Assembly (NCBI GenBank): GCA_964654485.1
Contig: CAZZJI010000007.1
Location: 3,276 to 67,275 of the forward strand
From: an uncultured Gammaproteobacteria bacterium
GTDB taxonomy: Bacteria > Pseudomonadota > Gammaproteobacteria > SG8-11
Length of the DNA: 64,000 nt
Reading direction: 5' to 3'
The position numbers were made by a program, and so were the translations under genes. This document shows, piece after piece, positions 35,840-39,536 of the stretch. How positions within the stretch are numbered: the stretch's first letter is position 1; each line of letters starts with the position of its first letter. Under the pieces are notes generated by a model that searched no databases, was not told where the DNA came from, and worked only from the letters and a program-made list of their open reading frames with translations.

Positions 35840-37405
35840 TTAGCCAAGATATACACGATATAGCGTATCGTTGTCGACATAAACAGTCACTAAATTGTTA
35901 TTTGCCCGTGCCTCACATAAGGCAGTAAAGGCATTGGTAACGCCATCAGGGTTTCCTGTTTTTATTTTTCGCCACCCTAGCCCCTGAATGTTTGCCCAAG
36001 CATTTTGAGAATGGTAACTAGTGTAGAGACGATTAACAATTTTGTTTGTATGCCACTCCTTAACCGCTGCTCCACCGACGTTAATATTGGCCGTTATATT
36101 TTCTCCCACGCGAGTAATCGCGGAAACATTGACTTCGGAGCCAGTACCATCATACGCGTTGCTGTTGGGCGTGGTCGTAGAATTAAAAGCGTTATTTCCA
36201 TTGAAAGGAAAAGTATCTCCACTGTCTCCGGAATTCGCATTACTGTTCAAGTCTCGCTTGCCATCAGCTTGTTCGATATCTACGAGGTAATGCGCTTCGT
36301 CTGTGTTATTTGATTGATTGTCATCAACATGTTCGATAATACAGCCCTCTCCTGGTAGATAAGAATCAAAACCCAGTTTTTGTCGATTCGCTACCAAAAA
36401 ATACTCTTTTGAATCTGCGCTGCCAATCGGCAATTTATAAACATCACCATTATTGAAATAAGGTTTAATATTTACACTTTGCGCACTATTGAATACCGTC
36501 GTTGAGGAAATCCAACCGGCTTTCAGTTTACACCAGGCAGACGGATGCGCTGGTGTGTGACCGTTGTTGTTCCAGCTGCCTCCGGCCATCAAATCCCATC
36601 GACCGGTACCACGTGATGAATAATCGGTGTCATACAGATCTGGCCAGCTCATTAATAAATGGCCTAGTTCATGTGACATAACACCTACCCGACCATCTTC
36701 CGGCGCCATGAAATAGCTACGTATTTGCACGCCGTTTACCGTCTTCGGCGTAATCGACCACTTGTGCGACCAAAAATCGCTTTTGTCACCCGTCGCTTCA
36801 GCGCCAGAACCAGCGGGAATGATAATCAATGCGTCTACTACACCATCACCATCATTATCGTATTGCGCAAAGTTAATATGAGGAGCAGCAAGATCAATGA
36901 CATCCTCTACCAGTTTCTGAGCGTTACGCGGGTAGTCTGCGAAACCGTAATCTTCATTGGTATAATATGATTTGGGTTGCGGTGCCCGATACCAGCCTAC
37001 AGTGACACCGCCGCTTCCGCCAACTTCGCCAACAATATCCAATTTACCGTATGAGGCTTCCCGGTAAAAGTCGTTCATGCTTCCACCAGCATAAGTTCCG
37101 CTGGAAAAGAGCATATCTCTAAAGTGTGACTGCGTTTGTGTTCCCGCCTTGTCTGAAAAATCCACCAGCAGAACCAAGGCCCTACGTGTGCCGACGATAG
37201 GGCTTAAACCCTTAGTGGGTGAGATCAGGGTATGAGCCCGAGTTTTAGGTGGACGCATCAAGATTTTCGTTGCACTTTCTCGATCGAGAACTTCGTCATC
37301 TGCTTTTTCAGGAAGTTCAAGACCAATACGTAGGCGGTGTTTTGAACGGATAATTTTCTCCTCCAATTCTGGTGAAGGAGGTGCGATACAAAGATTGTTG
37401 GACAT
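35840..37405 (-). CDS. M6-type (immune inhibitor A-like) zinc metalloprotease domain protein with novel ~70-aa C-terminal domain; no signal peptide
   Basis: 521 aa. Good RBS (agagga). HExxH as MSHELGHLL. Surrounding pattern (LVLLVDFSD..., DFYREASYG, DGDGVVDALIIIPAG, FWSHKW, GRWDLMAGGSWN) matches my memory of M6 family domains. Hydrophilic N-terminus MSNNLCIAPPSPELEEK. Confidence 0.75.
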   Translation of the reverse strand: MSNNLCIAPPSPELEEKIIRSKHRLRIGLELPEKADDEVLDRESATKILMRPPKTRAHTLISPTKGLSPIVGTRRALVLLVDFSDKAGTQTQSHFRDMLFSSGTYAGGSMNDFYREASYGKLDIVGEVGGSGGVTVGWYRAPQPKSYYTNEDYGFADYPRNAQKLVEDVIDLAAPHINFAQYDNDGDGVVDALIIIPAGSGAEATGDKSDFWSHKWSITPKTVNGVQIRSYFMAPEDGRVGVMSHELGHLLMSWPDLYDTDYSSRGTGRWDLMAGGSWNNNGHTPAHPSAWCKLKAGWISSTTVFNSAQSVNIKPYFNNGDVYKLPIGSADSKEYFLVANRQKLGFDSYLPGEGCIIEHVDDNQSNNTDEAHYLVDIEQADGKRDLNSNANSGDSGDTFPFNGNNAFNSTTTPNSNAYDGTGSEVNVSAITRVGENITANINVGGAAVKEWHTNKIVNRLYTSYHSQNAWANIQGLGWRKIKTGNPDGVTNAFTALCEARANNNLVTVYVDNDTLYRVYLG

Positions 37406-37488
37406 GGTTTTTTCCTCTTTTTATTGTTAGATTCGATACAAAATTCCTTGCTCTATAGGCGAAGATTCAGTTCCATTTTTGTCTTCGT

Positions 37489-37797
37489 TCAAGCGACCTC
37501 ATGAACATGGATTACCATTTTCTCAATGGATTGCGCCATGGGTACCCGGTACGCTTGCATACTAAGTAAATCACCAAGCTCTATTTTCGGATGACCAGAC
37601 AGGCTCACATGGGCACGAATGATGTAGTCCGATGCGGGATCGCGGACAACGAAGTCTATCGAAAACGATACCGATGTTTTCATGCCAGCTTGGTGGAACA
37701 CATGGTTAATTCGCAAACTAGTTAACTTTATTGAAGATCCATCCAGCATGCCAACGTCTTCCGCGTAAACATACAAAACCGCATCCGCCTGTCGCAA
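37489..37797 (-). CDS. Hypothetical 102-aa protein (weak motif-level resemblance to YbaY/YscW-type beta-sandwich domains)
   Basis: TTG start 3 nt after the upstream stop, suggesting translational coupling. DAVLYVYAEDVGMLDGSSIKL and YIIRAHVSLSG...GDLL patterns. Confidence 0.45.
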   Translation of the reverse strand: MRQADAVLYVYAEDVGMLDGSSIKLTSLRINHVFHQAGMKTSVSFSIDFVVRDPASDYIIRAHVSLSGHPKIELGDLLSMQAYRVPMAQSIEKMVIHVHEVA

Positions 37798-37800
37798 TGC

Positions 37801-38241
37801 TTACTTTTTAGTACTGCTTCGCGAGCTTGCTTTCTTAGTCGTTGGCTTTACCTCTGATTTATCTTCTAAATCAGGCGGCGGTGGTGCATCTTGCGACTGC
37901 GTTTCATCCAAACCAGGTGCCGGTACTACTATGCTACCTATGCTACCGTTCTTGATACTATGGAAAGATTCGTCGGAGAGTGGCCCAGGTGCGCTATCCA
38001 AGTTTGCTAGCGTATCTGCATTCTGCGTAACTTCTTCAGGACCTGGCGCCCCAGAAAAAGCGGCGCTTTCAGTGGCAGCCGACGACTGACCAGCCTCGGG
38101 ACCCGGTGCCGCATTAACGTCCATCTGTATACCAGAAAATGCCAAGTTATGCGGTGCGGGGGCTTCGGCCAAGTCAGCACTTGAAGTATTTTTTAAGAAC
38201 TCCCCGCCCATGGGAATTTTAATCGTGATTTCCGGGATCAT
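37801..38241 (-). CDS. Hypothetical low-complexity protein with four APGP/APGL-acidic repeats and Lys/Ser-rich tail
   Basis: 146 aa. Repeats AAPGPEAGQ, GAPGPEEVTQ, SAPGPLSDES, VPAPGLDETQ. C-terminus KPTTKKASSRSSTKK. Confidence 0.5.
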   Translation of the reverse strand: MIPEITIKIPMGGEFLKNTSSADLAEAPAPHNLAFSGIQMDVNAAPGPEAGQSSAATESAAFSGAPGPEEVTQNADTLANLDSAPGPLSDESFHSIKNGSIGSIVVPAPGLDETQSQDAPPPPDLEDKSEVKPTTKKASSRSSTKK

Positions 38242-38274
38242 TTTTCATTCTCCTATAATTTATTTGATGGAACA

Positions 38275-38300
38275 CAATGGCTGCAGTACTGCAGCCATTG
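38275..38300. other. Perfect 26-nt palindrome (stem-loop) between the 72-aa gene and the 146-aa gene
   Basis: caatggctgcagt|actgcagccattg. Contains two ctgcag sites. Confidence 0.6.
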
Positions 38301-38316
38301 ACAGCCGACATACATC

Positions 38317-38535
38317 TCAATTCATATACGCACGTTCAATAAGATTCTCGACAATATAGACACTAACGGTACGATTATTGGCTTTAGCAACGCTCAGCAA
38401 AGTAAAAGTATTGGTGACGCCATCACTGTTATCAGTTTTTATTTTTCTCCATCCAAGACCATCTATCCGCGCCCAACCATTTTGTGAATGAAAAGTTGTA
38501 TAAGTTTGAAGAACGGCTTTATTATTATTCCACAT
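38317..38535 (-). CDS. Free-standing copy of the protease C-terminal domain (72 aa)
   Basis: ATG at 38535 preceded by aagagga. MWNNNKAVLQTYTTFHSQNGWARIDGLGWRKIKTDNSDGVTNTFTLLSVAKANNRTVSVYIV... aligns along its whole length with the last ~72 aa of the 521-aa protease. Confidence 0.7.
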   Translation of the reverse strand: MWNNNKAVLQTYTTFHSQNGWARIDGLGWRKIKTDNSDGVTNTFTLLSVAKANNRTVSVYIVENLIERAYMN

Positions 38536-38657
38536 GATAGTTTCCTCTTTTTTGTTGTTGTAAAAATTTTTTTTCATCAAGATTCGAAGGCAATCCAAAC
38601 TACGACGCTTGCTTTTACTAAAATTATTTATTTTTTATTAAATTATAACGTCTTAAT

Positions 38658-38948
38658 CTAACTTATAAATTTAATTTTATTATTTAAATAGACCCGATAA
38701 ATGCTGCTACCATTTGCAAACACATTGATGGTTCGGTTATTTGCCTTTGCCTCGCATAAAACAACAAAGGTATTGGTAACGCCATCAGAATTACCGATAT
38801 TAATTTTTATCCAACCCAAACCTTGAATTAACGCCCAGGCATTTTGCGAGTGATAAGTCGAATAAACTCGGCCAACGGTATTGTGCGCCGCTGACTGCAA
38901 CGCCCATTTCAAGGTCGTCTTGTGTTGCATCAATATCATCGCCTGCAA
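38658..38948 (-). CDS. Second free-standing (or frameshift-fused) copy of the protease C-terminal domain
   Basis: ...KWALQSAAHNTVGRVYSTYHSQNAWALIQGLGWIKINIGNSDGVTNTFVVLCEAKANNRTINVF...IYRVYL. Weak start signals. The 5' 149 nt overlaps ORF 38800..39147 in another frame. Confidence 0.55.
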   Translation of the reverse strand: MQAMILMQHKTTLKWALQSAAHNTVGRVYSTYHSQNAWALIQGLGWIKINIGNSDGVTNTFVVLCEAKANNRTINVFANGSSIYRVYLNNKIKFIS

Positions 38949-39147
38949 GCTTAGCCTGGGTGCGGCTCTTCATCTCTTCTGCGGTACCCAGTACGATATC
39001 GCCTTCGAACAAAGCAAGTCCATCAACAACTGTGTATTGTACTGGCTTATTTTTAAATGTAAGGCCAGAAACGAAACCGGTAAAAATTTCGTCGCCGGAT
39101 TGAAACTCAGTACTTTCGCTTTCGCTTTCGGTATCTTGGTTCGCCAT
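38800..39147 (-). CDS. Hypothetical acidic N-terminal ORF; its 3' third is the out-of-frame shadow of 38658..38948 (possible frameshifted fusion)
   Basis: MANQDTESESESTEF...PVQYTVVDGLALFEGDIVLGTAEEM. Its last ~45 aa are read from the same nucleotides as the conserved domain in the other frame. Confidence 0.4.
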   Translation of the reverse strand: MANQDTESESESTEFQSGDEIFTGFVSGLTFKNKPVQYTVVDGLALFEGDIVLGTAEEMKSRTQAKLAGDDIDATQDDLEMGVAVSGAQYRWPSLFDLSLAKCLGVNSRFGLDKN

Positions 39148-39459
39148 AGGTTTGTTAGTATTATTATTAATTCCTTCTGCTCACCAAAGCTGAGTGAAAT
39201 CTATTCTTGCAATCGCGTCTATTTTTCACAGTGATAAATTACCCCGGTACTTGTGAAATATTTACTTTGTGATTAAATATTATTCTAATGACTTAAGTTA
39301 AAAACGGTATTTCGAAGTCGATCCCGGAGTGGGTCCCATAGTCAAGACAGTAATCCAAAAATATATGTTGTGACACAGTTTGGGTACAACTGAAGGCATG
39401 GAGGTGAAATTGGGTTGTTGTACTACGTTACGCGGGTATGAGTTATTTCAAAAGAGAAA

Positions 39460-39536
39460 TGGCCCGCTCGAATGGATTCGAACCATCGGCCTGCCCCTTA
39501 GGAGGGGGCTGCTCTATCCAGCTGAGCTACGAGCGG
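39460..39536 (-). tRNA. tRNA-Arg (anticodon CCT)
   Basis: 77 nt cloverleaf folded by hand. Acceptor CCGCTCG/CGAGCGG. D arm GCTC-AGCTGGATA-GAGC (A20 present). Anticodon arm GCCCC-CTCCTAA-GGGGC. Variable AGGCC. T arm GATGG-TTCGAAT-CCATT. Discriminator G, encoded CCA. Confidence 0.85.

Follow-up and report, generated by a model that had tools for sequence, protein, structure and literature searches.

The nearest described relatives of the locus reported here are LegP of Legionella pneumophila (lpg2999) and the LegP-like astacins (NF045530, PF01400, MEROPS M12A), proteins of a kind that is present in many bacterial genera (PMC6617341). In astacin zymogens, the aspartate of the prosegment motif FXGDI blocks the zinc; the motif has been described for animal orthologues, and myroilysin, the only bacterial astacin whose structure has been studied, relies on a cysteine switch instead (PMC9848320). 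Two further groups of known systems can be set beside the locus, namely the deletion pseudogenes that arise between short repeats by slipped-strand or illegitimate recombination, and the B subunits of the AB5 toxins (Shiga, cholera/LT, LT-IIb, pertussis S5, SubB and PltB) together with the pro-domain of protein-glutaminase (3a54).

In this study, a pair of overlapping open reading frames (ORF1 and ORF2) in a 64-kb stretch of DNA, hereafter the window, was compared with these systems, and the pair is very probably one pseudogene, that is, a LegP-type astacin (M12A) gene whose catalytic middle was lost by one out-of-frame internal deletion. The formation of a pseudogene by an internal out-of-frame deletion is an already known kind of event, and nothing substantive sets this locus apart from the known deletion pseudogenes: here, too, a single out-of-frame deletion lies between collinear flanks, the ORFs that it leaves are mis-called as two genes, and a possible, weakly supported imperfect repeat of ~12 nt is found at the breakpoints. 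With regard to LegP, the N-terminal part of ORF1 corresponds to the beginning of the LegP profile. The intact orthologues of the gene score above the LegP equivalog cut-off and have the HExxHxxGxxHE motif, whereas the copy in the window has no catalytic domain; the orthologue clade also has an extra C-terminal OB domain of ~70 aa, which lies outside the 244-position LegP profile. This likeness to LegP implies no link of the window gene to the Legionella secretion systems. As in the prosegments of animal astacins (pro-astacin, pro-meprin beta), the FEGDI of ORF1 stands ~40 residues before the mature N-terminus, YRWP (PMC9848320), but it occurs here in a bacterial gene that has lost its cognate catalytic domain, and its role as a zinc ligand is putative.

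All features described below lie on the minus strand of the window. In the ORF listing, ORF1 runs from 39147 to 38800 (115 aa, ATG start) and ORF2 from 38948 to 38658 (96 aa, TTG start). As the initial annotation had pointed out, the two overlap in different frames, with a common stretch of 149 nt (38800-38948), and the peptides which it quoted for both ORFs were correct. Since 39147-38948 is 199, or 1 mod 3, the frame of ORF2 is +1 with respect to that of ORF1. The exact 115-aa product of ORF1 was present on six contigs, five of which were fetched (SRR6439371, SRR6439372, GCA_006243105.1, GCA_006243245.1 and the marine metagenome DRR093004/PRJDB5792, a project named in one paper on deep-sea massive sulfide deposits). 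These five assemblies were 99.97-100% identical to the window and gap-free across the overlap region and the junction described below, and because the identical sequence stands in five other assemblies, the overlap is real and not a read error. In the public assemblies examined, the 115-aa ORF had been annotated as a gene by the gene callers. The overlapping arrangement was seen in this one near-identical sequence population only and in no diverged relative; as a conserved overlapping gene pair, it was absent from the relatives at 55-83% identity.

The homologous part of ORF1 comprises residues 1-93 (38869-39147) and consists of a LegP-type astacin prosegment followed by the very beginning of the catalytic domain (GVAVSGAQYRWP). 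Residues 25-65 matched positions 8-48 of the NCBIfam LegP profile (E = 2.5e-5, 24 bits), a score that falls below the 300-bit cut-off of the LegP equivalog NF045530, and the amino acid identity to the orthologue in locus L008 was 83-84%. At residues 47-51, ORF1 reads FEGDI, which matches the FXGDI aspartate-switch motif characteristic of an M12A prosegment; the zinc-blocking role is assigned from the literature and would apply to ORF1 by analogy. The invariant columns of the alignment include V40, V41, D42, G43, L44, A45, E48, G49 and I51 and, further on, G87, Q89, R91, W92 and P93, with E48, G49 and I51 invariant among five homologues. The few homologues that a word search recovered with ORF1 are N-terminal fragments of Pfam-Astacin proteins, and after the shared SGAQ[YF]RWP they continue with N/G-x-x-x-P-[YF], which is the start of the astacin catalytic domain. 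In ORF1, the similarity ends after YRWP (codon P93, 38871-38869), and a stop follows 22 codons on. The tail between them, SLFDLSLAKCLGVNSRFGLDKN plus the stop (38800-38868), is DNA of the C-terminal domain read in the wrong frame: it showed no homology to astacins, which read N[AG]xxPY after YRWP, and its nucleotides match the C-terminal domain in the other frame. A Pfam scan of ORF1 and ORF2 gave no match, the astacin catalytic domain (PF01400) included.

From RVYSTYHSQNAW on, ORF2 is the domain of ~70 aa that closes the M6 peptidase of the same gene cassette and makes up the whole of its 72-aa protein. This remnant of a C-terminal OB-fold domain (RVYSTYHSQNAW to IYRVYLN, 38682-38870) lies in the +1 frame relative to ORF1, and residues 275-339 of the L008 astacin matched it in tblastn at 77% identity (window 38876-38682). 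It had been proposed that homology in the domain frame begins at 'KW' (about 38906), which was not borne out: over 38924-38869 the frame of ORF1 is the conserved one, its QDDLEMGVAVSGAQYRWP matching the L008 orthologue at 17 of 18 residues, and the true homology of the C-terminal domain begins at about 38870-38867. The 26 codons of ORF2 upstream of that point (MQAMILMQHKTTLKWALQSAAHNTVG, 38871-38948) show no homology to the C-terminal domain and are prosegment DNA read out of frame and open by chance. The remnant lacks approximately the first eight residues of strand beta-1 (WHTNRLVS in L008). In the AF2 model of the 72-aa paralogue, this strand is predicted at residues 2-14; over half of it is deleted in ORF2, including the tryptophan and the nearly invariant valine, and unrelated sequence stands in its place. 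Measured against a complete OB unit, defined as beta1-beta2-beta3-alpha-beta4-beta5 with a W-x-x-N-x-x-V start and a C-terminal end, ORF2 falls short. At its other end, the ancestral stop after YLN has been lost and a seven-codon extension, NKIKFIS, runs on to a TAG stop (38658-38681). The stop stands directly after YLN in L008 (TGA), L134 (TAG) and L135 (TGA), and almost all members of the domain family end 0-2 residues past the last strand.

The intact orthologues display what the two pieces once belonged to. The closest syntenic ones are in the loci L008, L134 and L135. L008, from an uncultured gammaproteobacterial MAG, turned up when the N-terminal alignment was run against species-representative genomes (83% identity), and its gene order is that of the window: astacin, 72-aa gene, acidic proline-rich protein, small protein and 521-aa M6 peptidase. 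Its astacin is one uninterrupted ORF of 339 aa, reading MTNEY...FEGDIVLG...YRWPNGLMPY...HEIGHAWGIWHE...TTWHTNRLVSQVYSTYHSQNAW...RVYLN; it carries the Pfam Astacin domain at residues 85-266 (E = 3.7e-48), its score on the NCBIfam LegP model is 307.2 bits (cut-off 300), and its nearest solved relatives are hatching enzymes, meprins and BMP-1. The locus L134 holds an intact astacin of 342 aa (302.9 bits) within a full five-gene cassette, and the astacin of L135 is cut at the contig end, yet continuous through the deleted region. The alignment of orthologues, which the initial annotation had recommended as a check for a single in-frame gene, thus returns one ORF of ~340 aa in L008 and L134 and a continuous one in L135. 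That annotation had also named two findings that would speak against its proposal, and the observations went the other way, as a conserved pair of overlapping genes is absent from the orthologues and conservation extends to the upstream ORF. When an HMM of the C-terminal domain was run on all ORFs of the fetched loci, HExxHxxGxxH and the C-terminal domain were found in one ORF in 25 further loci, followed each time by a free gene of ~73 aa; the genome-derived ones among these come from Nitrospiria, Rhizobiaceae, Balneolaceae, Sneathiella, Rhodohalobacter, Nitriliruptorales and Kocuria, and the others are metagenome contigs. The ancestral gene therefore encoded ~340 aa, namely a prosegment of ~85 aa (FXGDI), an astacin catalytic domain of ~185 aa (HExxHxxGxxHE, Met-turn) and an OB-fold domain of ~70 aa. 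As a separate observation, the astacin of a relative at 55% identity (L006; also L007) is split by a 1-nt frameshift at TATTTTAACCT (1255-1311), between YVYF and PATGCWSSVG. The frameshift sequence is identical in the two records, which may share one sample, and the split may reflect either a separate pseudogenisation or an error of assembly.

Compared with these orthologues, the window has lost a net 569 nt, the same figure against L008, L134 and L135. At the deletion junction (38867-38880), the window has 2 nt (38869-38868) where the orthologues have 571. On either side, collinearity with the orthologues extends to the junction itself, window 39099-38870 corresponding to L008 807-1033 and window 38867-38683 to L008 1605-1789 in blastn. 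With about 190 residues (88-277 in L008 numbering), the gene has lost its entire catalytic domain, the linker and some eight residues at the start of the C-terminal domain, and a tblastn search with the intact orthologue found nothing in the 64-kb window that matches its residues 89-256. The position of the breakpoint is uncertain by about 12 nt, since a short imperfect direct repeat may be common to both sides. In L135 this repeat, ACCGCTGGCCAA against TCCGTTAGTCAA, matches at 8 of 12 positions (top 1.6% at that offset), and in L008 and L134 at 5 of 12 only; a slipped-strand deletion through such a short imperfect direct repeat may have been the mechanism.

The sequence of events may be pictured as follows. 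In this lineage, a single internal deletion of net 569 nt took out codons 88-277 (L008 numbering), and a loss of this length (2 mod 3) put what was left of the 3' end into the +1 frame. Translation from the native ATG (39147) then yields 115 aa, in which the prosegment is followed by nine residues that belong to the mature N-terminus and by a nonsense tail of 22, and the frame of the C-terminal domain, which is open by chance for 26 codons upstream of the junction, produces the apparent overlap of 149 nt. The frameshifted fusion that the initial annotation had suggested thus holds in that both ORFs derive from one ancestral gene with a broken frame; the cause was not the homopolymer indel or single-base shift it had in mind. 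The pseudogene reading is built on direct observations, i.e. the homology of the pieces, the collinearity of the flanks, the length of the gap and its phase, the reproducibility across assemblies and the intact single-ORF orthologues, and the loss of function is inferred from this architecture and not from sequence decay. For annotation, it means that both ORFs belong in a single pseudogene feature, described as an internally deleted LegP-type astacin, and should be listed neither as two hypothetical proteins nor as a recoding site. The event is a routine gene loss, after which only the M6 enzyme of the cassette's two secreted-type proteases is intact in this lineage.

Both remnants still look conserved. 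Between the window and L008, dN/dS was 0.085 for the prosegment remnant and 0.12 for the remnant of the C-terminal domain, with dS above 1, and the neighbouring genes ranged from 0.063 to 0.17 (0.12 for the 72-aa gene, 0.063 for the M6 peptidase). ORF2 departs from the consensus at only one of the 16 most conserved columns of the family, which lies in its non-homologous upstream stretch; within the homologous part, every such column keeps its consensus residue. Accordingly, dN/dS against L008 and deviations at the conserved family columns gave no positive sign that selection on the remnants has been relaxed. The low dN/dS fits a recent deletion and would equally fit a retained function of the pieces; neither measure was informative, and a low dN/dS says little where the event is recent. 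The deletion looks recent relative to the dS above 1 that separates the window from L008, a reading based on the lack of decay in dN/dS and in keeping with the public copies being all near-identical. Secondary signs of erosion were noticed in the lost stop of ORF2, with its seven-codon extension, and in a 69-nt deletion in the fourth gene of the cassette.

A retained function would mean that the allele has been turned to new use. One form of this idea is that the product of ORF2 would be made by re-initiation or coupling as an extra free subunit, that ORF1 would persist as a free prosegment, and that the OB domains of the cassette would form a B-subunit-like ring of free 72-aa and peptidase-tethered subunits; we regard this as very unlikely. 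Another version, a neo-functionalised split in which ORF1 is a free aspartate-switch prosegment, e.g. an inhibitor of astacin-type enzymes, and ORF2 an extra free OB subunit translated from the ATG at 38939 or 38930 or coupled to ORF1, is in our judgement highly improbable. Both frames are open and the remnants combine low dN/dS with kept conserved residues; moreover, free-standing is the commonest form of the OB-domain family, so that a free copy is plausible in principle. However, the start signals do not fit such a gene. ORF2 has six TTG/ATG candidates (38948, 38939, 38933, 38930, 38912 and 38900), and no SD-like match of at least 4 nt precedes any of them, which agrees with the weak start signals described earlier for the domain frame and leaves a nested independent start unsupported. 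The three intact genes further down the cassette (72-aa, 146-aa and M6), in contrast, all have AGGA or AGGAG, and the strong RBS reported for the 72-aa paralogue was found as AAGAGGAAACTATC before its ATG. The start of ORF1 has no Shine-Dalgarno match. The ~8 residues missing from beta-1 also include the W and the V of the MWxxNxxV with which nearly all free copies begin, the stop codon has drifted, and the arrangement exists in one near-identical population and in no diverged relative.

That the break was made by sequencing or assembly, through an indel error or a collapsed assembly, is extremely improbable. Metagenome assemblies can collapse repeats, and the C-terminal domain occurs three times within 3.3 kb, but five further assemblies, which come from at least two or three projects, show the same junction without a gap. 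What is missing is catalytic-domain sequence, which is unique and not a repeat, the flanks are collinear to the junction, and a collapse between paralogous C-terminal domains would not fuse YRWP to the domain's own start.

The weakest alternative is recoding. To fuse the two frames, a +1 shift at TGG CCG AGT would be needed, where neither a prfB-type stop nor a hungry-codon context was found; ORF1 contains no X_XXY_YYZ heptamer, and there is no homopolymer of at least 4 nt between 38948 and 38868, the only ones in the overlap (38845 and 38808) lying downstream of the junction. The initial annotation had expected a single shift to give a two-domain protein of ~150 aa; undoing the shift gives ~163 aa, a prosegment joined to an N-terminally clipped C-terminal domain, and would not restore the three-part ancestor of ~340 aa, because the catalytic domain is deleted. 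Although the geometry permits both homologous parts to be joined at the junction, a programmed +1 frameshift making a prosegment-OB protein of ~163 aa is next to impossible, given that the orthologues are plain in-frame genes that need no shift, that the product would be devoid of a catalytic domain, and that a natural prosegment-OB fusion occurred in none of the 30 mid-length family members inspected, which were M6, S8-like or C1-like peptidase fragments or small proteins with unrelated acidic N-termini.

Besides the pseudogene itself, the analysis has a more useful by-product, an uncharacterised OB fold of the AB5-B type that is carried by two or more peptidase classes and has a conserved free partner gene. 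The domain of ~70 aa is common to the C-termini of the astacin and the M6 peptidase, and the free protein of ~73 aa consists of the same domain. In a set of 1.84 billion proteins, the family counts only 192 representatives at 50% identity; the domain is always at the extreme C-terminus or free-standing, and is also found on S8-like and C1-like peptidase fragments. Free members almost always begin with MWxxNxxV. When the ORF2 domain was used by itself in a word-indexed search for homologues, nothing was returned, and the family was recovered by profile searches only. A Pfam scan of 50 family members gave no significant family, which leaves the domain with no Pfam model; a match of the window's 72-aa protein to DUF7862 (E = 0.048) was far below the cut-off and was set aside as noise. 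In the structural models, the domain is predicted to be an OB fold, most like the B subunits of AB5 toxins and the protein-glutaminase pro-domain. The sequence identity to these proteins amounts to 4-15%, with no family match at the level of sequence; the cassette domain also differs from them in being fused to peptidase C-termini as well as free. By analogy with the toxins, a hetero-oligomeric ring assembled from the OB domains of the cassette may be offered as an idea.

The pseudogene is the first member of a conserved cassette (window 35840-39147) that encodes a LegP-type astacin, a free protein of ~73 aa, an acidic proline-rich protein, a protein of ~121 aa and an M6 peptidase, and cassette loci were collected from the window, L008, L134, L135, L136, L009, L012, L091, L093 and others. 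Upstream of it stands a tRNA-Arg(CCT) (39460-39536, ARAGORN), which is given for context only, with ~310 nt of AT-rich non-coding sequence between it and the start of ORF1. Next to the pseudogene is the intact stand-alone OB-domain gene of 72 aa (38317-38535), which has a strong RBS and an AF2 pLDDT of 95.2. A consensus scan of 38200-39500 for promoters and terminators gave matches no better than those in shuffled sequence; the best sigma-70-like match, TTTATA-16-TATAAT (10 of 12, window 38642-38669), overlaps ORF2 at its 3' end and lies upstream of the 72-aa gene. The third gene encodes an acidic proline-rich protein of 146 aa (37801-38241), which is syntenic in L008 (145 aa, 58% amino acid identity) and L134 (140 aa). 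The fifth is an intact M6 (immune inhibitor A-like) metallopeptidase of 521 aa with a C-terminal OB domain (35840-37405; PF05547 E = 1.8e-24, TIGR03296 E = 2.3e-69), and its length is also 521 aa in L008 and L134.

The fourth gene (37489-37797) is truncated at its 5' end and encodes ~121 aa in L134, L135 and L136. Its 69-nt deletion (window 37787-37800) has removed the intergenic spacer, the start codon and ~19-22 codons, and the residual frame starts at a TTG, 3 nt past the upstream stop. The copy in L008 (2647-2907) diverges after SIDFTV and meets an early stop at 86 aa, compared with ~121 aa elsewhere, which suggests a frameshift or an assembly error. The G+C content of the window is 42%, against 48-50% for the loci of the closest relatives, and this AT shift of the lineage may be tied to the gene erosion in the cassette.
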